A DNA stretch of 57,688 nucleotides. It comes from an uncultured Nitrospinaceae bacterium (lineage in GTDB: Bacteria > UBA8248). A model generated the notes under the pieces. The model was not told where the DNA came from. It ran no database searches and saw only the letters and a program-made list of their open reading frames with translations. Location of the stretch: the NCBI GenBank assembly GCA_964558115.1, contig CAZLCI010000004.1:1-57688 (forward strand), given 5' to 3'. Positions 4,777 through 30,396 of this stretch are shown piece after piece. The translations under genes and the position numbers were made by a program. Every line of letters begins with the position of its first letter. The stretch's first letter is position 1.

Positions 4777-5910
4777 ATGTCTGAAAGAAAAGAACTAGGA
4801 TTAGCTGTTGTAGGTTGCGGGGTTGTAGGACGAATGAGAGCAACTTTGGCAAAAGATTTTCCTGGCATAGGTTGGATAGGTCTTACTGATATGAATCAGA
4901 AAGTAGGAGAGAATCTAAAGAAAGATATTCAAGCAGATTTTTTTACAACGGATCTAAAGGAATTATTAAATCGACCTGAAGTTGATGCTGTTATAGTTGC
5001 AACTTCAACATGGGCACACGTTGAACCCTCTATTATTGCTGCCGAACTTGGGCATTCATTAATGATAGAAAAACCTTTAGCGACGGACGCAAGGGAGTCG
5101 GCAAAAGTTCTGGAAACTATTGAAGCCTGTGGTGTAGATGCAGTGGTGGGATATACACAACGTTTCCGTAGACGTTTTCTTGCCGTAAAAGAAAGAGTTG
5201 ATAACGGTCAGATAGGAGATATCACAGCAGCAGTTACCCGTGCTTTTATGAATAGGATGGCACCAACAGGAGAAGTTCGTTTGACAAAGGATCGACGTTT
5301 TCTTACTCCAATGGTCGTTTCAGGAACTCACAGTTTAGATATGTGTATGTGGATAATGGGTCCCTCTGCTAAACCAGTTTCGATTTTTGCAAGGTCTACA
5401 GAAAAGATATTGAGTGATTTAGGAACAAAAGATGCTACTTTCGGTGTCTTTACAATGGATAATGGAGCAATTTGGAGTATGAATATTTGTTGGGCTTTGC
5501 CTAAAGCCTGGCCAGGAGCGGTGTATGGTTTAGAAATTGGCATTGTCGGGACAAAAGGTGTTGTAGATATAGAAGATACACATAGAGATGTTGTTATGGC
5601 GTCAGAATTTTCTCAAGGACCTGCCTATAGACCTGAAGATTTTGTTATGGAAGCAGAAAGAAATGTAGATTTTTTAACAAGTTTTCCTCCTGGAGATATA
5701 TATGAAGGTGAATTATGGGGACCAATGAGAGAAGAAACCAATTCATGGTTCCAGAGGATTTATTCTGGGAAAAATACTCCTCATGCAACAGCTTCGGAAG
5801 CGCATAGAAACTTGATGTTAACAATGGCAATGGATCTTTCTGCAAAACGTCAGAGTGAAATTGAGTTGCCCATAGAACCTGCAGAATTAATGTCTGGTCT
5901 TGAAGAATAA
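4777..5910 (+). CDS. Gfo/Idh/MocA family oxidoreductase
   Basis: N-terminal VVGCGVVG Rossmann motif, EKP motif, GTHSLD. Confidence 0.9.
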   Translation: MSERKELGLAVVGCGVVGRMRATLAKDFPGIGWIGLTDMNQKVGENLKKDIQADFFTTDLKELLNRPEVDAVIVATSTWAHVEPSIIAAELGHSLMIEKPLATDARESAKVLETIEACGVDAVVGYTQRFRRRFLAVKERVDNGQIGDITAAVTRAFMNRMAPTGEVRLTKDRRFLTPMVVSGTHSLDMCMWIMGPSAKPVSIFARSTEKILSDLGTKDATFGVFTMDNGAIWSMNICWALPKAWPGAVYGLEIGIVGTKGVVDIEDTHRDVVMASEFSQGPAYRPEDFVMEAERNVDFLTSFPPGDIYEGELWGPMREETNSWFQRIYSGKNTPHATASEAHRNLMLTMAMDLSAKRQSEIELPIEPAELMSGLEE

Positions 5911-5953
5911 TTTTTTAAAATATTCAAGATTAAGTATAAGGAATGGAATATTT

Positions 5954-7192
5954 ATGTTTAGTTCAATTAGAGGATTATTAAGCTTAGAAACTAATAAAAT
6001 TATTGACGATCTAAAGCACCCATTTACCTGCCCAGATTCTGGGGGTACTTTGAAGGGTTTATATGACTTGGATTGGATTCATAAAAGTATAGATCGCGAA
6101 GAGTTAAAGACAAGACCTTCAGGCATTTGGCGTTGGCACGAATTGCTTCCTGTTAGAGATCCTGAAAATGTAATTTCTCTTCATGAAGGTGATACTCCAC
6201 TTATTCATGCACAAGAATTAGGAAAAGAATTAGGTCTAGAACGGCTTTTTATACTCGATGAATCAAGGAATCCTACAGGTTCTTTTAAGGATAGAGGTGG
6301 CTCAGTCACTATAAGTAAGTGTAAAGAAGTTGGAATTGAACAAATTGTTCTTCCTTCTTCAGGTAACGCAGCTGCTTGTTTTAGTGCATATTGTGCGAGA
6401 GGAGGTTTAGATTTTATCGGTTTTGTAAGAGATGATAGTTCTCAGGCACACTGTGTTCAGGTAGAGGCTTATGGAGCATCTACTTTTGTCGTAAATGGGG
6501 ATCAGGGGGTTTGCGGAAGACTTGCAGAAGAAGTTTCTAGAGAATTGAAATGTTTGCATGCAACTTTGCCGAGAAATTTATATAGAGTTGAAGGCAAAAA
6601 AACTATTGCATATGAAATAGCAGAGAAATTTAATTGGGAAGTACCTGACCGGGTTATTTGCCCTACTGCTGGAGGTACTACTTGTATTGCACTTGAACAG
6701 GGGTTTAGTGAACTCATTCAACTAGGATGGATAGATCGAATTCCTGCGATAGATGTTGTACAGTCTGATGGGTGTGCGCCTATAGTCGAATCTTTACACT
6801 CAGGAAAAAAAGTGAAACCATGGGGAAAAGTAGATACAATGTCTGCTGGTTTAACTAGTCCAAGTCCTGCATGCGGAGACAAAGTTGTAGAAATAGTTAA
6901 AAAAACTGGTGGAGAGGGAGTTGAAGTTACTGATCAAATGAATTTAGAGATGGAATTCCTTCTAGCTAAAAAAGAAGGTATTTTTTTGCAACCTGCTTCC
7001 GCAGCATCTATAGCTAGCCTAACCAATCAAGGAAATAGAAAAATTAAACCTCAAAAAAGTGAGACTATCGTTTGTATAGGAACAGGCACAGGAAAGAATG
7101 CTATAGAGGTAGCAACAGGTCACTTAGGGAAAACCAGAAGAATTGAGCCTGACATTAAAGAATTTTTGAAGATTTATAGAGGAAATGAATGA
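5954..7192 (+). CDS. Threonine synthase-like PLP-dependent enzyme (fold type II)
   Basis: EGDTPL, NPTGSFKDRG (PLP Lys), SSGNAA, EGKKTIAYE; ATG 5954 preferred over the overlapping TTG 5900. Confidence 0.85.
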   Translation: MFSSIRGLLSLETNKIIDDLKHPFTCPDSGGTLKGLYDLDWIHKSIDREELKTRPSGIWRWHELLPVRDPENVISLHEGDTPLIHAQELGKELGLERLFILDESRNPTGSFKDRGGSVTISKCKEVGIEQIVLPSSGNAAACFSAYCARGGLDFIGFVRDDSSQAHCVQVEAYGASTFVVNGDQGVCGRLAEEVSRELKCLHATLPRNLYRVEGKKTIAYEIAEKFNWEVPDRVICPTAGGTTCIALEQGFSELIQLGWIDRIPAIDVVQSDGCAPIVESLHSGKKVKPWGKVDTMSAGLTSPSPACGDKVVEIVKKTGGEGVEVTDQMNLEMEFLLAKKEGIFLQPASAASIASLTNQGNRKIKPQKSETIVCIGTGTGKNAIEVATGHLGKTRRIEPDIKEFLKIYRGNE

Positions 7193-18734: not shown

Positions 18735-19655
18735 ATGAAAATACTTCGTTTTGGCAAAGATAGGATTGGAATTATCAAGAATGAAAATTTTGTTGTTGAT
18801 GTTAGTGAAATAATTAAAGATCGTGAAATTAAAGGAGAACAAACTGTTATCGAAGAAGTCATTTCTAATTATGACAATTTGAAGGAAGAAATTGAGAATC
18901 TTGTAAATAAAAATGAAGGGAAACCACTTGATCAAATAGATATTCTTGCCCCAGTTCCCAGGCCGAGTAAATGTATTGGTGCGTTTCTAAATTATCTGGA
19001 TTTAGGAAGAACTGTTGAGATGCTTCCATTGGAATTTTTTTATAAAGACAATACTTTGCTCGGGCCAGGCGGAACTATAAAATTAGTTGATATTCCTGAG
19101 GTAACTGAATTTCAACCTGAAGCTGAATTAGCATTTATTGTGAAAAAAAATGCTAAAGATATAAATGTTGAAGATGCGATGGATTATGTTTTTGGATATG
19201 TTCCGTTTTTTGATATTTCAGTGCGTGGAATTACACGTTACACTCGTTTCTTGACAAAAGGTCAAGCCACCCATGGACCTTGTGGTCCTTGGATTGCTAC
19301 TAAAGATGAGATTCCTAATCCGCATAAACTGAACGTGAAATCCTGGGTTAATGGTCAAATTGCTCAAGATTATAGTACAGAGCATATGGCACATAAGATT
19401 CCAGATTTAGTAGCATGGGCGAGCCGTTTTGTTGAATTGAGAACCGGTGATGTGATTGCTACAGGAACATATCATGAAGGCAGGAAGCCAATAGTTGATG
19501 GAGATTTTTTGGAAATTGAAATTGAAGGTATTGGCAAAACTGGATTTCATGCGCAAGGCTTTAAATCAAAAATTGATTCTTCGAATTCTGAACCTAGTGC
19601 TAGTCCTGCACCTGCGCCGGGAGTTAAAGATTCTTCAAAAATAACAAAGATTTGA
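18735..19655 (+). CDS. Fumarylacetoacetate hydrolase family protein
   Basis: EAELAFI, FDISVR, K...T.GP.GP.I, GDVIATGT. Confidence 0.9.
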   Translation: MKILRFGKDRIGIIKNENFVVDVSEIIKDREIKGEQTVIEEVISNYDNLKEEIENLVNKNEGKPLDQIDILAPVPRPSKCIGAFLNYLDLGRTVEMLPLEFFYKDNTLLGPGGTIKLVDIPEVTEFQPEAELAFIVKKNAKDINVEDAMDYVFGYVPFFDISVRGITRYTRFLTKGQATHGPCGPWIATKDEIPNPHKLNVKSWVNGQIAQDYSTEHMAHKIPDLVAWASRFVELRTGDVIATGTYHEGRKPIVDGDFLEIEIEGIGKTGFHAQGFKSKIDSSNSEPSASPAPAPGVKDSSKITKI

Positions 19656-22499: not shown

Positions 22500-23057
22500 A
22501 TGGAAAAGCCTATCGATGGGTTCGAAACGTCTAGTGAAATTGGAAAACGTGTTATTGATCAACCAGAACTTCCCTCACAAGGTTTAGCTACAGATTCTGA
22601 AGTTTTTACTGAAGTTGTTGAAGGTCAGATTCAACTAAAAAAAGGGACCGTTAGACATTTTGAGGTTTTTTGTGATGAACAAGAAAGAATAGGTGGGACT
22701 GATAAATATCCATCTCCAATGTCCTATATGGCAATGGGAACTGGTTTCTGACTTCTAACCCAAGTTGCGCGGTACGCGCATATGATGAAAATTGATATTG
22801 AGAAGGCAAGTGTGAAGGTTAGGTTTCGTAAATTGTTAGGAGGTTCTGTATTAAAGGGTACAGTTTTTAATAAGTGGCAAGGAGTAGATACGCATTTAAT
22901 AGTAGAATCAAAAGCTCCAAAAGATAAAATTGCACACCTAATTCGAAATGCAAAAAATGGTTGCTTTGCAGAAGGGCTAATAGTGCAGTCCGTACCATTG
23001 ACAAGCACTATTGAGTTAAATGGGGAAAAACTAGATTTGGAAGGAATAACAGATTAG
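22500..23057 (+). CDS. OsmC/Ohr-like selenoprotein, 185 aa, Sec84 at TGA 22749-22751
   Basis: ORFs 22500..22751 and 22782..23057 are in frame and joined by stop-free LLTQVARYAH; GGTD.YPSP.SY....GF-U-L.TQ..RYA puts TGA at the OsmC catalytic Cys; second Cys in AKNGCFAE; SECIS-like hairpin follows. Confidence 0.88.
22766..22780 (+). promoter_or_regulatory. Putative bacterial SECIS hairpin of the OsmC-like gene
   Basis: TGCGC-GGTAC-GCGCA: GC-rich stem in an AT-rich region; loop begins GGU with 19 nt between UGA and loop. Confidence 0.75.
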
Positions 23058-23116
23058 TTTTGAAGATGGTTAACTTTGTTTTTTGATTTCTTAATTTTGC
23101 ATACTTGGGATTCATT

Positions 23117-23941
23117 ATGATAAAGACTCCGCATTTGATTTATGGGACCGCTTGGAAGGAAGAGGCTACGGAAGAACTTGTCTTATCTGCAATTAAAACA
23201 GGATATCGTAATTTTGATACTGCAAATCAGAGAAGACATTATGTTGAAATTGCTGTTGGCGATGCCCTTTCGGAGGCATATAAAAATGGTATGGAGAGAG
23301 AAGAATTTTTTTTGCAAACCAAATATACTTTTCCTGCGGGTCAGGACGAGAGACTGCCCTATGATTTAAATGCGGACTATGATGTTCAGGTTCGACAATC
23401 ATTCGAGAGTTCTCTAGAACACTTACAAACAACTTTTGTTGACTCTTATCTTTTACATGGTCCGTCTCAGCGTTTTGGTCTTGACGAATCCGATTTGATG
23501 GTTTGGGCTGAGATGGAATCTATTTTTAAAGACGGATTAACCAGAAGTTTAGGGGTAAGTAATGTAAATATTGAACAACTAAAACTTTTATACGAAGAGT
23601 CTAAAATAAAACCGACATTCGTACAAAATCGTTGTTTTGCACAAATGGGTTGGGACTGGGAAGTGAGAAAATTTTGCAGAGAAAACGAGATTTTGTATCA
23701 AGGATTCTCATTACTTACAGCTAACCATTTCGTTTTAACAACTCTAAAAGAAATTTCGGAAAGGATAAATAAAACTCCTGCTCAAATAATTTTTCGATTT
23801 GCAATTTATATTGGGATTGTTCCTCTCACGGGTACGACAAATATGTTGCATATGGAAGAAGATATTTCTCTAGATTTTGAACTTGAAAATTCTGAAATCG
23901 ATTTCATAGAAAAAGTTGGAATTGAATTTCGGCAAAGATAA
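23117..23941 (+). CDS. Aldo/keto reductase
   Basis: YGTAWK, G.R.FDTA..Y, LQTK, DSYLLH, LGVSN; ATG 23117 preferred. Confidence 0.9.
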   Translation: MIKTPHLIYGTAWKEEATEELVLSAIKTGYRNFDTANQRRHYVEIAVGDALSEAYKNGMEREEFFLQTKYTFPAGQDERLPYDLNADYDVQVRQSFESSLEHLQTTFVDSYLLHGPSQRFGLDESDLMVWAEMESIFKDGLTRSLGVSNVNIEQLKLLYEESKIKPTFVQNRCFAQMGWDWEVRKFCRENEILYQGFSLLTANHFVLTTLKEISERINKTPAQIIFRFAIYIGIVPLTGTTNMLHMEEDISLDFELENSEIDFIEKVGIEFRQR

Positions 23942-23958
23942 AATCTTGTTAATTAACA

Positions 23959-24831
23959 TTACCATTTTAGGTTTACTAACAATGCTCCTCCAACGGTCAT
24001 TAGACATCCTGTAGGTATCTTCCAAGTGAGTTTTTCAAATTTTCTTACTAGAAAAAATGCCATGGTTACTGTGAAAATAGGTGAAGTTTGGATTATAGGA
24101 AGCATACGATATACTTCTCCAAGTTTCATTGCTTTCGTATAACAAAAAAACCCACATGCCATTAATAGACCAGCGAGTAAAAAAGGTCGAAAGCTTTTTT
24201 TGATATTGACTTCCGAAAAACTTTTGGTAGTGAGAATAGTGTAGATCCCTACAATTGATAGACCAATAATCGTACCAATTGTAGTTCCAACGGTAGTGTC
24301 TGGGAATGATTGCAGACCCTTTCTCCAAAATACTGCAGCAAATGATGATACAATTGCTGCGGCGATTGGCCAAAGAATTTGAATTTTTTTGTATCCTCCG
24401 TCAGTTTTCTCAAAAGTGATAAGAGTAATCCCAGAGAAAACAAATGCGATGCCAACTAAATTTTTCCAGGTTGGTTCCTCTGACAAAATTAAAATTCCTA
24501 GAAGAGTTCCAAGAATTGGAGAACTTCCTTTGATTGGAGCAGCGCGAGCGACACCTATTTTAGAAATTCCAGTGAGATAGAATATAAAGAAGAGACCCGG
24601 ATTACATACACCTGCAAAAATTATCCATAGATAATGTATTCCAAGATTAGGAAATGTAGATTGAGAGAAAATAATAAATACAATCAAAATAAATAAAGTA
24701 CTTGCTAAAACAATAGTAGAACCTATAAATGCATTTGTGTGCTGAAGACCGGAGCGAATTGCCATATCACAAAGCGCATAAGAAAAAGACGCAGAAAGAG
24801 CAAATAAAAATGCTAAGTCAATAATTAACAA
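23959..24831 (-). CDS. DMT/EamA family transporter
   Basis: About 10 TM segments, GVARAAPI...LSEE repeat pattern. Confidence 0.85.
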   Translation of the reverse strand: MLIIDLAFLFALSASFSYALCDMAIRSGLQHTNAFIGSTIVLASTLFILIVFIIFSQSTFPNLGIHYLWIIFAGVCNPGLFFIFYLTGISKIGVARAAPIKGSSPILGTLLGILILSEEPTWKNLVGIAFVFSGITLITFEKTDGGYKKIQILWPIAAAIVSSFAAVFWRKGLQSFPDTTVGTTIGTIIGLSIVGIYTILTTKSFSEVNIKKSFRPFLLAGLLMACGFFCYTKAMKLGEVYRMLPIIQTSPIFTVTMAFFLVRKFEKLTWKIPTGCLMTVGGALLVNLKW

Positions 24832-24891
24832 TTTGTCTGACCTTTCTTAAGAATTTTTGTAGTTTATGAAAAGAGATCAAAGTAAGGTTTT

Positions 24892-25254
24892 CTATAATAA
24901 AATATCTTCTTCGTTTAGAAGAATAAGATATGGCTCTCCATATTGTCCTTTTTCTGAAATAGCCCAATTTGATTGATCTGTTTTAAGTTTGAAACGAACC
25001 CCCCAGTCTCCGCCATAAATGAGGTGAGAACTTCCTTGTCCAGAATCTGAAACAGGCGTATAGAGAGCGGAACAAGGAGAGCCATTTTCTTTACTAGACC
25101 ATCCTGTAATCTGATATATTCCATCTGGATAATCAGGCAACTCCAAACGGATATAGTTTATTAGAACAGGTTCCTTTTTTATCTCATAAAGGTGTCCGGG
25201 CATATAAGTACAATTTTGATTTTCTTCAACTTCTAAGTATAAATTTTGTGTCAA
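24892..25254 (-). CDS. Hypothetical protein (acidic, 120 aa)
   Basis: Fills the gap between co-oriented genes, TTG start after AGGA, protein-like composition (SDSGQG, GGDWGVR, GEPYL). Confidence 0.7.
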   Translation of the reverse strand: MTQNLYLEVEENQNCTYMPGHLYEIKKEPVLINYIRLELPDYPDGIYQITGWSSKENGSPCSALYTPVSDSGQGSSHLIYGGDWGVRFKLKTDQSNWAISEKGQYGEPYLILLNEEDILL

Positions 25255-25287
25255 TTTTTTATCCTGATTTAACGTTTTTTTTGGGAT

Positions 25288-26073
25288 TTATATAGACCAA
25301 CTTCTGCCTCCATCTACAGGAATTAATGATCCATTAATATAAGAAGCTGATTCACTCGCTAGAAATAGTGCGAGTTGTGCTGCTTCTTTTGGATCTCCAA
25401 ATCTGCCTGTTGGATTCTGTGATGCTCTTAAATTAGCGGCTTCTTTTTCTGAAATAGAATGAAGGTCTGCATATGTTTTGAGGCCTCTTCTAACCATTGG
25501 CGTATCAAATTGACCAAGTAAAATTGCATTTACACGTATTCCATTTGATGCGACAAGTCTTGCTAGCGCTTTCGTCGCACTTAAGATTCCACCACCTGCT
25601 GTTGCTGCCATCACATTTTCAGGAATTGGTTCCTTGTAAATGACTGCGCCCATAAAAATTACATTTCCTGTTTTTCTTTTTGTCATTTTACTGAGTACTT
25701 TTTGAGTTAGATAAAGTGGTGATGTGATTCGATTTTTTAAAATTTCTTCCCAGAGTTTGGGTTCGGTTTTGAAAAAATCTCCAGGATAACTTTTCCCTGC
25801 ATTATTAATTAATATATCTATTGGACCTAAAGTTTTCTCTGTTTTTTCTATGATCTTATCCATATCTTCTAAGTAGGATAGGTCTGCACTTATAGATTCA
25901 ATTTCACCACCATCTTCTTCGAGGATTTTTTTTGCTTTTTCTATTTTTTCTATATTACGTCCTGTTATCATTATTTTTGCGGACTCTTTTGAGAAAAGTC
26001 GTGCAGTTTCTAGTCCAATTCCACTAGTTCCTCCAGTTATAATTACTACTTTCCCATCTAAATTGTATGACAT
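25288..26073 (-). CDS. Short-chain dehydrogenase/reductase, atypical active site
   Basis: TGGTSGIG, INNAG, GIRVNAI, VDGG; no YxxxK. Confidence 0.88.
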   Translation of the reverse strand: MSYNLDGKVVIITGGTSGIGLETARLFSKESAKIMITGRNIEKIEKAKKILEEDGGEIESISADLSYLEDMDKIIEKTEKTLGPIDILINNAGKSYPGDFFKTEPKLWEEILKNRITSPLYLTQKVLSKMTKRKTGNVIFMGAVIYKEPIPENVMAATAGGGILSATKALARLVASNGIRVNAILLGQFDTPMVRRGLKTYADLHSISEKEAANLRASQNPTGRFGDPKEAAQLALFLASESASYINGSLIPVDGGRSWSI

Positions 26074-26258
26074 TATCTAACCTTTCTACTTTAAAAGTTT
26101 CATTTCTACGAAAAAAAATGATTTGAATTCTCAATTTGAATTTAATTTAGTAAACTCTTCCTCGCTTCCATTTAAAGTTCTAGCATATCAGATACCTTGC
26201 TTCATATACGTTTGATTTTTTTTGTCAGAAGTCTGTTTTTAAAAAGGTAAAGCGAAAA

Positions 26259-27431
26259 ATGGAAAAAAGTAAGTCAATGCAAAATGCACCATGGACAGCG
26301 ATGTCTCTTTTATTCCTAGCACATTTTGTTGTGGATAGTCAGGTAAGTTTTCTTGCTCCTCTTCTTCCATATCTTAGAGAAAAGTTTGAAATCAGTCTTG
26401 CTACTGCTGGTATTTTAATTAGTCTTCAAGCTTTTTGTGTTACGGCAAGTCAACCTTTGACTGCACTTATAACGGATAGGTTTCCTCATTTGCCCTGGCT
26501 TGCTATTGGTCTGATAGGTAGTTCTTTTTTTATAACTGCGATGGGATGGCTCCCCTTATATTCGGCTGTTGTTATTTCGATTCCTTTAGGAGGTTTCTTA
26601 GCAGGTCTTGCTCATCCTGATATGGGTTCTAGAGCAGGTTCTTTAAGTGAAGATCATCGAACTTTAGCAGTTAGTGTATATGTCTCTGGAGGAAGACTAG
26701 GATTTTCAATAGGTCCTATTATAGCGTTATTTATAGTCGATTCATTAGGGATGGAGTTTCTTTGGATTTATGTTTTGATAAATATCATTCTAGTTTATGG
26801 GATTATGAAAGGATTACCAAAGCCATCTGCTATTACTAATAGAGATAGTACTATTCTTATGGGATTGAGGAAGGCACTTTTTTCTGCCGGCCTTCCTCTT
26901 GTGATACTTTTGGGTGTGACTATTTCTAGAAGTATAGTAACAGTGAATTTGCAAGGTTTACTCCCTACTCTTTATGTTGAAAGAGGGATTGGTCTCTGGC
27001 AAGGGGGAATAGCTAATTCAGTTCTGTTGTTTTTTGGAATGTTTGGAGTAATCCTAGGAGGTGTTTTAGCTGATTTGCTGGGGAAAAAGAAACTCATAAT
27101 TACCGGAATGTTAACTGCACTTATTGGTTTAGTAGGCTTCTTAATGTCATCACCTATAGTCGCTTTAGTTTTTCTTTCAATTCTTGGGTTAGGAATGTAT
27201 ATGCCGATGGGTGTGAGTATGGCATACGCACAAGAATTCCTACCCGAGCACAGAGGGTTTGCAAGTTCTCTAACATTAGGCGTTTCATGGGGTTTTGCAA
27301 GTTTTTCTGTTATCCCCATTACGAATATTGCAGAAAGTATAGGTCTTATGAATGCATTTTGGTTCTTGCCACTTGCACTGGTTCTTGCACTGTTTCTTGC
27401 ATTCTGCCTTCCAAAAGAGTCAATTAATTAA
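26259..27431 (+). CDS. MFS transporter (Fsr-like)
   Basis: 12 TM segments, HFVVD..., SQPL..L.TDR, AHP, GG.LAD..GKK. Confidence 0.88.
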   Translation: MEKSKSMQNAPWTAMSLLFLAHFVVDSQVSFLAPLLPYLREKFEISLATAGILISLQAFCVTASQPLTALITDRFPHLPWLAIGLIGSSFFITAMGWLPLYSAVVISIPLGGFLAGLAHPDMGSRAGSLSEDHRTLAVSVYVSGGRLGFSIGPIIALFIVDSLGMEFLWIYVLINIILVYGIMKGLPKPSAITNRDSTILMGLRKALFSAGLPLVILLGVTISRSIVTVNLQGLLPTLYVERGIGLWQGGIANSVLLFFGMFGVILGGVLADLLGKKKLIITGMLTALIGLVGFLMSSPIVALVFLSILGLGMYMPMGVSMAYAQEFLPEHRGFASSLTLGVSWGFASFSVIPITNIAESIGLMNAFWFLPLALVLALFLAFCLPKESIN

Positions 27432-27433
27432 TT

Positions 27434-28309
27434 TTATAATGCATACCTTTTTAGAAATTTACGTAGGGTCTCTTCGTATTTTTTTAAATCTGCAACCATA
27501 GGGAAGTGACCGCTTTTCTTCAGTGTTTTTATAATTGTACCCTTAGGAAGTAATGCTTTTAGTTTTCTTACCTCTTGTGGAGTATTCCTTTTGGTCTTGC
27601 CGCCTCTTAATATTAGAACTGGACATTTCACTAGAGGAGCAATTGGAAAAGGGTCATAGTCACTCTTTATAGATGCTTGAAAAGTCCTTAGTTTGAAAAA
27701 CCAGTTTTTATCAAAAGGCATTCTACATGGACCATTTAAATCATTATAAAGCAGAAGATTCTTTACAAATTGTAATGATTCTTTTTTTGGCCATTCACCG
27801 TTCTCTGATCTTGAAAAGTATTCAACAGCACTTTTTAAATTTTTGAATGAGTTTGGTTGTGCGAAGTTTTCTTTAAGACCTTTAGCTCTTATTTCTAAGG
27901 GTCTTGAAGGAACGTCAACTAATACTATACAACGAATTCTTTTTGGAATTAGTGATGCAAGATGAAGAACATGTGCGGCTCCAAAAGAGTGTCCAAACAA
28001 GCTGAACTGATCTAATTTAAGCTTGTTAGCTAAATTAAGAGCGTCCTTTGCAAAGGATTTTGAAGAAAATGGATGTCTTGGTGAACCAGCGTCACTTAAC
28101 CCATATCCCCTTTGATCTGGACAAATAAAGTGCCACTCTTTCAGTTTTTCTGCTGTGGAATTCCACATTCCAGACTGCATTCTAGAACCATGCAAGGCTA
28201 GTATAGGAAATTTTTTTAATTTTTGTTTTGGTTTCCACTCATTTATGTACATAAGAAAATTTGAAATTAAGTGGTAGGACTCTTTCCATCTTTGATTTTG
28301 ACTATTCAT
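27434..28309 (-). CDS. Alpha/beta fold hydrolase
   Basis: LHG, DQRGYGLS, GHSFG, SGHF. Confidence 0.9.
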   Translation of the reverse strand: MNSQNQRWKESYHLISNFLMYINEWKPKQKLKKFPILALHGSRMQSGMWNSTAEKLKEWHFICPDQRGYGLSDAGSPRHPFSSKSFAKDALNLANKLKLDQFSLFGHSFGAAHVLHLASLIPKRIRCIVLVDVPSRPLEIRAKGLKENFAQPNSFKNLKSAVEYFSRSENGEWPKKESLQFVKNLLLYNDLNGPCRMPFDKNWFFKLRTFQASIKSDYDPFPIAPLVKCPVLILRGGKTKRNTPQEVRKLKALLPKGTIIKTLKKSGHFPMVADLKKYEETLRKFLKRYAL

Positions 28310-28436
28310 ATAAACTCCATTTTTTTAATTTCGAAGATTTTTTATTTTTTACATGATATCTTGTATAAAACTTTTTTTACACAATTAAAAAATAAATCTA
28401 ATTTTTGGTTACTCAATTTTTGAAAAGGGAGAAAAA

Positions 28437-29018
28437 ATGGGGAGAATAAGCGCTTTAAACGATAAAGCAAAAGGAGGTCATGAAGATAGTTTCGAGGTTT
28501 CTCGAAAACGTTGGGGCAGTGTTCCTAATTTTTACAGGACTCTCGCACATTCCCCTAAAGCTCTTCATCATATTATGGAACTCTCTTATGAACTTAGAAA
28601 GAGGTGGAGAGAAGACCCTGAAAGACTCAGACTCATGCAACTTGCAATTGTGAAACCTTCAATGATGAATCAATGCTTAATATGAACAACACATAATCAG
28701 GAGCTTGGTCAAGTTGCCGGATTAGAAGAAAAACATTTCAACGAACTTATGGGAAATTGGAGTGATAGTGAATTATATGATGATCGAGAAAAAGCGGTTA
28801 TTCGATGGGCTGAGTCCTTGACGGAGAATACTGCTCGAGATGACGACAATGCATTTTTGGAATTGAAAAAATATTTTAATGAACAAGATATTGTAGAACT
28901 TACTTTATTTACCTGTTTGTTTAATGCCTGGAATCGTTTGCAAGATGGATTTCAAAATGATTTGGAACCACCTGAAGGTCGTATTGAATGGACTCCAGAT
29001 TGGCAAGAATCTTCTTAA
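28437..29018 (+). CDS. AhpD/carboxymuconolactone decarboxylase-like selenoprotein, 193 aa, CxxU (Sec83 at TGA 28683-28685)
   Basis: ORFs 28437..28685 and 28749..29018 are in frame and joined by stop-free TTHNQELGQVAGLEEKHFNEL; S..NQCLI-U-..H corresponds to AhpD CxxC..H; C-terminal half has REKA....AE.LT and IVELT.....N..NR; SECIS-like hairpin follows. Confidence 0.9.
28694..28724 (+). promoter_or_regulatory. Putative bacterial SECIS hairpin of the AhpD-like gene
   Basis: TAATC-a-GG-AGCTT-[GGTC]-AAGTT-g-CC-g-GATTA; GGUC loop with 21 nt between UGA and loop. Confidence 0.75.
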
Positions 29019-29040
29019 AATATTATTACAGGAGACTTAT

Positions 29041-30396
29041 ATGACCTTTAAAAAGTATCGTCCTCTTGAAAATTCATTACTTACTTTTCATAATTATATT
29101 CCTAACTTCCTCAAAGGAACTGATAATCCTCGAGAGTATCTTGAAAGATGTCTCGCTCAAATTGATCTATTGGAGTCTAAAGTTAAAGCTTTTGTCGTTA
29201 TGAATATAGAATCCGCCAGAAAAATTGCAGATGCATCTACTAAGAGATATCAAGCTGGGAAGCCCCTCTCGGTTGTAGACGGTATGCCATTTGGAGTTAA
29301 AGATCTATACGAAACAATAGATATGAAAACACAGATGAATAGTCGGGTTTATAAGGATTGGCAAGGTATTAGAGACAGTGCCCATGCTTTTTCGCTAAGA
29401 CAGGGCGGTGCTATTATTCTTGGAAAAACTTCAACCACAGAATTTGGTATGGCAACACCACCTCCAACAAGAAATCCTTATAATTACGATAAAACTGCTG
29501 GTGGCTCTTCAAGCGGAAGTTCGGCGGCTGTGGGAGCAGCCATGATTCCTGCTGCTTCTGGAAGTCAGGTTAGAGGTTCTATAGTTAGACCGGCTGGATA
29601 TTGTGCAAATTTTGCTTTAAAACCAACTTTTGGCGCTATTAATAGGGGAGGTGGGCACTCATTGGCTCCTAGCCAAAGCGTTCTTGGTGTACATGCTGGT
29701 TCGCTTGAAGACTGTTGGTCTACAGCTTTTTATATATCTTCCCATGCAGGAGGAGACGCGGGTTGTCCCGGCTTATTTGGAAATCCAACGATTGCAGAAT
29801 CAAAAAATCCGGGTGCGATTATTCGACTTGATTCCATTGGATGGGATTCGACAACCGATTCAACAAAAGAGGCCTTTGAAACTTTTTTGGAGAAATTGAA
29901 TCTTAGAGGTATTAAAATTATTTCGAGGAAGGATGATGATAGGATAGAAAAATTTGAAGAGGCATTGCGAGAGATTCCAGATTTTCTGTTCCGTATGCTT
30001 GGTTATGAATCTCGTTGGCCTTTAAAAGATTATCAATTATCTCATCCTGAATCACTTAGTCAAAAAATGATTGATTCGTTAGAGTTAGGCTTGTCTGTTT
30101 CTGTTGATGACTATAGATCGATCCTTAAGCAACGCCAAAAACTTCGAGATTTGCAAATTTCTTTAAAAGAAATTGCAGGTTCATTTTTACTTCTATGTTC
30201 CTGCGATCCTCCTCCTGATTATCCATATATAGGAGATCCTGTGTATGGTGATGTTTCATCTACTCTTGGAACTCCAGCGTTTTCGCTTCCGTTCATTGAA
30301 GTTGATGGTTTGCCAGTAGGTATTCAGTACATGGGATATCCTGGAGAGGACTATCAATTAGCGTGCAATTCTAAGTGGATGAAGGAAAATTTATAA
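29041..30396 (+). CDS. Amidase signature family protein
   Basis: G.PFGVKD, GKT.TTEF, GGSSSGSSAAV, SQVRGSIVRPA; ATG 29041 after AGGAG. Confidence 0.92.
   Translation: MTFKKYRPLENSLLTFHNYIPNFLKGTDNPREYLERCLAQIDLLESKVKAFVVMNIESARKIADASTKRYQAGKPLSVVDGMPFGVKDLYETIDMKTQMNSRVYKDWQGIRDSAHAFSLRQGGAIILGKTSTTEFGMATPPPTRNPYNYDKTAGGSSSGSSAAVGAAMIPAASGSQVRGSIVRPAGYCANFALKPTFGAINRGGGHSLAPSQSVLGVHAGSLEDCWSTAFYISSHAGGDAGCPGLFGNPTIAESKNPGAIIRLDSIGWDSTTDSTKEAFETFLEKLNLRGIKIISRKDDDRIEKFEEALREIPDFLFRMLGYESRWPLKDYQLSHPESLSQKMIDSLELGLSVSVDDYRSILKQRQKLRDLQISLKEIAGSFLLLCSCDPPPDYPYIGDPVYGDVSSTLGTPAFSLPFIEVDGLPVGIQYMGYPGEDYQLACNSKWMKENL

Follow-up and report, generated by a model that had tools for sequence, protein, structure and literature searches.

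Introduction

In Escherichia coli fdhF, a selenocysteine insertion sequence (SECIS) hairpin lies directly after the UGA codon within the open reading frame (ORF) and is read by SelB. Two families of small redox proteins, AhpD-like (CXXU, with U for selenocysteine, Sec) and OsmC-like (UXXT), were described as selenoprotein families in the 2005 Sargasso Sea study of Zhang, Fomenko and Gladyshev, the cited parts of which also note conserved guanosines in the SECIS loop (PMC1088965); both families reappear in the cited sections of two recent reviews (PMC13188914 and PMC9312934). Here we describe one gene of each kind on a stretch of 57,688 nucleotides from an uncultured Nitrospinaceae bacterium (contig CAZLCI010000004.1 of assembly GCA_964558115.1; contig C4 in our numbering), the whole of which is referred to as the window. 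Each gene is interrupted by an in-frame TGA that is followed by a hairpin. We conclude that both TGAs almost certainly encode Sec, one in an OsmC-like protein with the motif UxxT and the other in an AhpD-like protein with the motif CxxU, both of them small thiol/selenol redox proteins.

The lineage itself has also been noted before. The 2026 BSepDB compilation, in the section cited here (PMC13326102), includes among its top ten bacteria by selenoprotein number three metagenome-assembled genomes (MAGs) labelled Nitrospinota, Nitrospinaceae and Nitrospinae, which belong to UBA8248 in GTDB and have 48–54 selenoprotein genes. The selenoprotein-rich character of such MAGs is already in print, as a table entry only; a literature search combining Nitrospin* or UBA8248 with selenoproteins or selenocysteine returned no other relevant paper. 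The two sites add members to selenoprotein families that were already known, and the finding is right, not new. As both families have been known since 2005 and the lineage is already tabulated, it is of modest interest, and nothing here alters the understanding of Sec decoding.

The two interrupted genes of the window

The OsmC-like gene occupies positions 22500..23057 of the forward strand (185 codons) and joins two ORFs of one frame, 22500-22751 and 22782-23057, through the TGA at 22749..22751. The residue assigned to this codon, U84, lies in the motif G-F-U-L-L-T (UxxT), and a second conserved cysteine follows at C154. The read-through product scored 173.8 bits against the NCBIfam model of OsmC-related (seleno)proteins, NF041052 (cut-off 95), with the match covering residues 37-175 and including the Sec position, and the Pfam OsmC match likewise runs across the TGA. 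When the product is aligned with 3cje_A, an OsmC-like protein of solved structure, U84 and C154 take the positions of its two conserved Cys residues. The putative SECIS hairpin at 22766..22780 (forward strand) consists of a G+C-rich stem of 6 bp with the loop GUA or, alternatively, of 5 bp with the loop GGUAC; the latter begins 19 nt downstream of the TGA.

The AhpD-like gene, at 28437..29018 on the same strand (193 codons), is formed correspondingly from ORFs 28437-28685 and 28749-29018, which share one frame and are joined by the TGA at 28683..28685. The predicted product has the motif C80-x-x-U83 (C-L-I-U). Comparison with solved AhpD-like proteins gave 2gmy_A with an E-value of 4.6e-15, and C80 and U83 align with the CxxC of both 2gmy_A and 7xw1_A. 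The hairpin following this TGA spans 28694..28724 (forward strand) with a core helix at 28700-28718, a bulged G and the loop GGUC (28707-28710), which begins 21 nt downstream of the TGA. Its lower helix is specific to close relatives, and the helix as a whole is interrupted. The in-frame UGA thus stands at a position that is Cys in homologues at both sites, and an initial reading made from the sequence alone (below, the sequence-only reading) had placed both codons and both loops correctly and had matched both codons with catalytic Cys residues.

Conservation of the interrupted genes

Homologues were searched for in 41 genomes, namely this one and 40 relatives. With the OsmC-like query, 31 of the 41 gave matches, including all 24 other genomes of the same family, with 2–11 copies each. 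One in-frame TGA is present in 124 of the 127 matches listed, and the three without it are pieces of 78–91 residues. Matches to the AhpD-like query occurred in 29 of the 41 genomes, again including 24 of 24 other same-family genomes, with 1–14 copies each, and every one of the roughly 150 matches listed (11 more lie beyond these) contains one in-frame TGA. Among named records, the OsmC-like gene has its closest matches, at 95–96% identity, in MAGs that bear the label Nitrospinota or Nitrospinaceae; one MAG of the BSepDB top ten is also among the named relatives, at 70% identity. Selenoprotein richness is typical of this marine lineage, the members of which all carry multi-copy Sec forms of both families. 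In larger same-family genomes (G016, G004 and G008), up to 11 OsmC-like and 14 AhpD-like TGA copies were observed, some of them in tandem (for example loci L088 and L090). This pattern points to repeated duplication of the Sec genes along with their hairpins.

Conservation and covariation of the hairpins

For the covariation analysis, 60–63 nt from the TGA onward were taken at each homologous site. The alignment for site 1 held 28 sites from 26 of the 30 fetched loci, two loci contributing two tandem copies each and four distant loci without the motif being left out. For site 2, 29 sites from 29 of 30 loci were aligned; one locus lacked the motif, and one spurious extra regular-expression match was dropped. 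In the site 1 alignment 90.1% of cells are paired, and in that of site 2 the proportion is 89.8%, compared to 28–53% when the 3' partner was slid by 1–3 columns.

Compensatory changes occur at both sites. At site 1, pair 20-30 is C-G in 24 sequences, A-U in three and unpaired in none. Pair 24-29 of site 2 is U-A in 15 and C-G in 13 sequences, again unpaired in none, and pair 20-33 is A-U in 16, G-C in nine and C-G in two. The switch at pair 24-29 joins changes in two codons, one synonymous at the third position of a Leu codon and the other at a second position, where it converts Gln to Arg; this coupling is RNA-level compensation. The codons of the site 1 hairpin are also uncommon: GCG, CGG and TAC make up 10.7%, 2.4% and 23.7% of the Ala, Arg and Tyr codons of the genome, and the expected frequency of the codon string given the peptide A-R-Y-A is 6.5e-5. 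A stem-loop with a G in the apical loop is therefore conserved among the TGA-containing homologues at both sites, and the covariation whose absence, by the terms of the sequence-only reading, would have refuted it was observed.

Hairpins were further judged by a strict rule, which asks for a stem of at least 5 bp with at least two G-C pairs and for a loop of 3–5 nt that starts with G and lies 15–26 nt after the codon. Of the 28 Sec-TGAs validated in the genome-wide scan described below, 19 pass this rule, and site 1 is one that passes. Only one of the 57 rejected scan candidates did so, and of 256 TGAs that terminate ORFs of at least 200 amino acids (aa) none did. As background, the rule was passed after 134 of 5794 codons for Cys and after 88 of 5346 for Trp (1.6–2.3%).

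Several observations weigh against the assignment of both codons to Sec. Folding of the single sequences was not significant (z of -0.77 for site 1 and -0.70 for site 2), with 41 and 49 of 200 shuffled sequences, respectively, folding as well, and neither hairpin matched Rfam at the gathering score or at an E-value of 1 or below. The hairpins encode conserved peptides (ARYA and LGQ/RA), so that part of their conservation is at the protein level, and the relatives are not independent, so that the shuffle controls overstate significance. Site 2 fails the strict rule with 5 bp and a single G-C pair, although covariation supports it. The AhpD-like protein scored below every NCBIfam cut-off, including that of the best model, TIGR01926 (60.2 bits, cut-off 81.8), and had no Pfam match at an E-value of 0.01 or below. 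Finally, the estimated contamination of the 141-contig assembly is 3.4%, and the sel genes are located on contigs other than that of the window. The AhpD-like protein is a divergent branch of the AhpD-like superfamily, and we class it as a member of that superfamily outside TIGR01926. A real RNA structure is still supported by the slid controls and by the direction of the changes.

Selenocysteine machinery and alternative readings

The genome holding the window comprises 2.11 Mb in 141 contigs, is 96% complete and has a G+C content of 34.9%. Contig C23 carries full-length selA (569 bits) and full-length selB (407 bits), and contig C2 carries selD (335 bits), all over curated cut-offs; selD carries an in-frame TGA of its own. 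A tRNA-Sec with the anticodon tca is encoded on contig C32 and is the only tca tRNA reported in the genome. All four components thus co-occur in one genome. Neither a sel gene nor a tRNA was found in the window; the absence of sel genes had been recorded by the sequence-only reading.

By analogy with the E. coli system, each in-gene hairpin, with its loop about 20 nt after the UGA, would be bound by SelB carrying Sec-tRNA(Sec), and Sec would be inserted in place of termination, which is the standard bacterial route. As the OsmC and AhpD families suggest, the two proteins are probably peroxide- or disulfide-reducing, with peroxidase-type chemistry in which Sec would replace the reactive Cys.

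The UGA codons might instead be read through without Sec, by near-cognate Trp or Cys insertion, and the hairpins might be by-products of conserved peptides. The overlap of the hairpins with conserved peptide motifs, the indirect identification of Sec and the lack of significance of the single-sequence fold are compatible with this. Such a reading does not account for the complete Sec machinery with its full-length SelB, for the compensatory changes linking synonymous and non-synonymous positions, for the rare codons in the hairpin or for the enrichment of hairpins obeying the strict rule at Sec sites over Cys and Trp codons and true stops. Moreover, both families are documented as selenoproteins (PMC1088965, in the parts cited; NF041052). 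We therefore consider read-through without Sec to be very improbable.

A variant genetic code (table 4 or 25), in which TGA would encode Trp or Gly, is more improbable still and has practically no chance of being correct. It would fit the in-frame TGAs present in many genes of this genome. However, the stops of the 881 ORFs of at least 300 aa are TAA in 532, TAG in 189 and TGA in 160 cases, and TGG occurs in frame 4230 times. Within the window, TGA 7190-7192 closes ORF 5900-7192 and TGA 19653-19655 closes ORF 18735-19655, both of which had already been taken as true stops in the sequence-only reading. Most read-through candidates of the genome are neighbouring genes in the same frame (thrB, trpB/trpA, asd/MTAP and dnaB/alr), and the TGAs in question align with Cys, neither with Trp nor with Gly. 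Since TGA ends 160 of the 881 long ORFs, Trp is encoded by TGG and the lone tca tRNA is tRNA-Sec, recoding is site-specific, as the sequence-only reading had proposed, and no variant code operates. That the TGAs are nonsense mutations or assembly errors, leaving pseudogenes or pairs of small independent ORFs, is equally hard to credit, for while public gene calls do give the halves as separate hypothetical proteins, the same codon recurs in more than 25 genomes, one domain model and an in-frame coding signal extend across each TGA, and a conserved, covarying hairpin follows it.

Genome-wide scan for selenoprotein genes

We scanned the genome starting from 2676 in-frame TGAs with at least eight codons on each side. 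A simple codon-usage score on both sides was of no use, passing 1049 sites as "good"; in its place we took a dicodon coding score, which had to be best in frame 0 of the six frames on both sides and left 85 candidates. Read-through products were compared with NCBIfam (the first 70 of the 85) and with Pfam (24 chosen candidates). A curated domain model spans the TGA in 28 of the 85. These comprise five OsmC_like_Se genes and one other OsmC-fold gene, nine AhpD/CMD-like genes with CxxU, two UGSC genes, two peroxiredoxin-like genes, two DsbA/thioredoxin-like genes, two glutaredoxin-like genes (one fused to DinB) and one gene each for SelD, GrdA, GrdB, a SelW-like protein and a CoA_trans protein. 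The strict hairpin rule, applied to the remaining 2591 TGAs, returned 25 matches, of which three are additional DSBA-domain proteins whose domain extends over the TGA. This brings the total for the genome to at least 31 (28 plus 3), a density of about one selenoprotein gene in 68 kb, including six of the OsmC superfamily, nine AhpD/CMD and five DsbA-like genes; this number is a lower bound, as the scan would miss Sec near a terminus or in genes that score weakly. The sequence-only reading had anticipated both a selenoprotein-rich genome and additional Sec proteins outside the window. Most of the genes encode small thiol/selenol oxidoreductases in expanded paralogue families, a pattern suggesting that oxidant defence in this organism with its small genome depends heavily on selenium.

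The other 57 candidates were rejected, mostly as neighbouring genes in the same frame (nicotinamidase/thrB, trpB/trpA, asd/MTAP, dnaB/alr, cdsA/dxr and mfd/PPIase) or as short extensions, either at the C-terminus or at the N-terminus upstream of the real start (mqnA-like, hisB, TauE and EF-G). Candidates in C21, C49 (UxxC) and C14 have a SECIS-like hairpin or a motif and matched no family; the one at C21p17357 (140 codons) has a 9-bp hairpin with the loop GGC only 15 nt after the TGA, and its product looks like that of an antisense frame.

Some individual genes are worth recording. GrdA (C18:28717-29169, forward strand; 207.6 bits) and GrdB (C18:30504-31820, forward strand; 436 bits against the GrdB family) each have an in-frame TGA. 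These glycine/sarcosine/betaine reductase selenoproteins are notable in a small marine genome with Nitrospinota-labelled relatives. The gene at C37:639-1391 (reverse strand) combines a glutaredoxin-like UxxC domain and a DinB-family domain in one product of 250 residues. Four DSBA-domain genes, C51:9048-9680 (forward), C72:7842-8525 (reverse), C88:2486-3148 (reverse) and C58:3299-3943 (reverse), place Sec at a distance of 13–18 residues from the N-terminus; the motif is UxxC in two of them and UxxA, without a resolving Cys, in the other two. At C51:12268-12555 (forward), 95 codons encode a predicted membrane protein in which Cys and Sec stand side by side (L-C-U-W-P), and the gene has a SECIS-like hairpin of 8 bp; its TGA is kept in the three same-genus genomes and in two weak, more distant matches, and no Pfam match was obtained. 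An AhpD-like CxxU gene at C11:30277-30966 (reverse) directly follows, in the same frame, a 762-codon gene for an XdhA-like molybdenum hydroxylase subunit, which ends in a true TGA stop. The coupling of these two genes may be functional.

A CoA-transferase-like Sec gene

The CoA_trans gene of the scan (C50:13277-14101, forward strand) encodes a GctA/IpdA/AibA-like alpha subunit of 274 residues with U111 in the motif T-E-H-A-U. The match to PF01144 (CoA_trans), at 73.9 bits, is over the cut-off and spans U111. In a same-genus relative, a CoA_trans beta-like gene and an RraA-like gene follow the orthologue. The PF01144 match and the adjacent beta-like gene in the relative place the product, by sequence family, among the alpha subunits of family I CoA-transferases. 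Its TGA is followed by a 9-bp hairpin with the loop GGC, the strongest of the Sec set.

The TGA is kept in all 19 orthologue loci, namely in this genome and in 18 relatives at 61–92% identity. The 54 more distant matches (31–49% identity) have no stop, and in one same-genus genome (91% complete) only the paralogue was seen. The genome's own paralogue has Cys at the position of U111. Among 115 public homologues, 110 aligned at this site, with Cys in 95 (E-E-H-A-C), His in 12, Asn in two and Gln in one. Four public matches with 57–64% identity are 150–167 aa long, which would fit Sec forms of which only the C-terminal half is recorded.

Among solved structures, the nearest to the product are GctA (1poi), 5mzw_A and three entries for IpdA (6con, 6co6 and 6coj). 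U111 aligns with the sole visible difference between 6co6_A (Glu) and 6coj_A (Ala), a position that we take to be the catalytic Glu105 of the ring-cleaving hydrolase IpdAB; 5mzw is presumably a decarboxylase and 6co6 a hydrolase. None of the NCBIfam selenoprotein models matched the product. The selenoprotein tables of the two reviews contain no CoA-transferase entry, and the supplementary family lists, which lie outside this comparison, may hold one. We regard it as quite possible, while leaning slightly against it, that the lineage holds an unlisted Sec family, a GctA/IpdA/AibA-type alpha subunit with Sec in T-E-H-A-U. If so, Sec or Cys would be the catalytic residue of a new branch of the CoA-transferase fold whose members are probably not transferases, and this family alone would add a new kind of selenoenzyme, provided that it is indeed unlisted. 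The sequence-only expectation of new Sec families elsewhere in the genome has accordingly yielded one candidate, the novelty of which is no more than possible.

Gene neighbourhood and annotation

The neighbours of the OsmC-like gene are a gene for a peptidase S9/esterase-like protein and one for an aldo-keto reductase; those of the AhpD-like gene are an alpha/beta hydrolase gene, which is divergent, and an amidase gene. The stretch between the two neighbourhoods contains SDR genes and genes for EamA and MFS transporters. The longest amidase ORF (window 28924-30396, forward strand) overlaps the 3' end of the AhpD-like gene by 95 nt. As Pfam matches the amidase only from residue 71 onward, its true start is probably later, and the amidase and AhpD-like genes may be co-transcribed. 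The gene order around the two Sec genes is kept in the three same-genus genomes only and is absent from the other 21 OsmC and 14 AhpD orthologue loci, each viewed with about 1.5 kb of flank. As the order is confined to the genus, we do not regard the proposal that Sec enzymes here belong to catabolic clusters as established.

All four ORF halves of the two window genes are present in public protein sets, letter for letter, as separate proteins of 82–91 aa that are called "hypothetical protein" where they are named at all. Standard annotation had been expected to fragment such genes, and it does. Both window genes and about 30 others of this genome are stored as such truncated halves, so that the capacity of this widespread marine lineage for redox reactions and peroxide defence is under-reported.

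Comparison with known systems

Compared with the SECIS/SelB system of E. coli fdhF, both sites share the hairpin within the ORF and a loop about 20 nt after the UGA that starts with G, and the genome encodes a full-length SelB. Site 2 also has a bulged base and what we take to be the same four-base loop as the E. coli element. In contrast, the stems found here are family-specific, that of site 1 being very short and G+C-rich with a loop of 3–5 nt, and binding by SelB is putative.

The BSepDB MAGs (PMC13326102, section cited above) have 48–54 selenoprotein genes, whereas 31 were found here by a conservative scan in a smaller genome (2.1 Mb). The AhpD-like protein resembles the described CXXU selenoproteins (COG2128/TIGR01926; PMC1088965, PMC13188914 and PMC9312934, in the parts cited) in having CxxU in place of CxxC, in its marine origin, in its multiple copies and in the hairpin loop GGUC, but differs in scoring below the TIGR01926 cut-off and far below the cut-offs of the other (seleno)protein AhpD models. 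The OsmC-like protein corresponds to the UXXT family (NF041052; PMC1088965, in the parts cited) in its score, in the UxxT motif with Sec at the first Cys, in the second Cys and in the G of the in-gene hairpin loop. Nothing essential sets it apart from that family, which is represented in this genome by five copies alongside one more distant OsmC-fold Sec protein.

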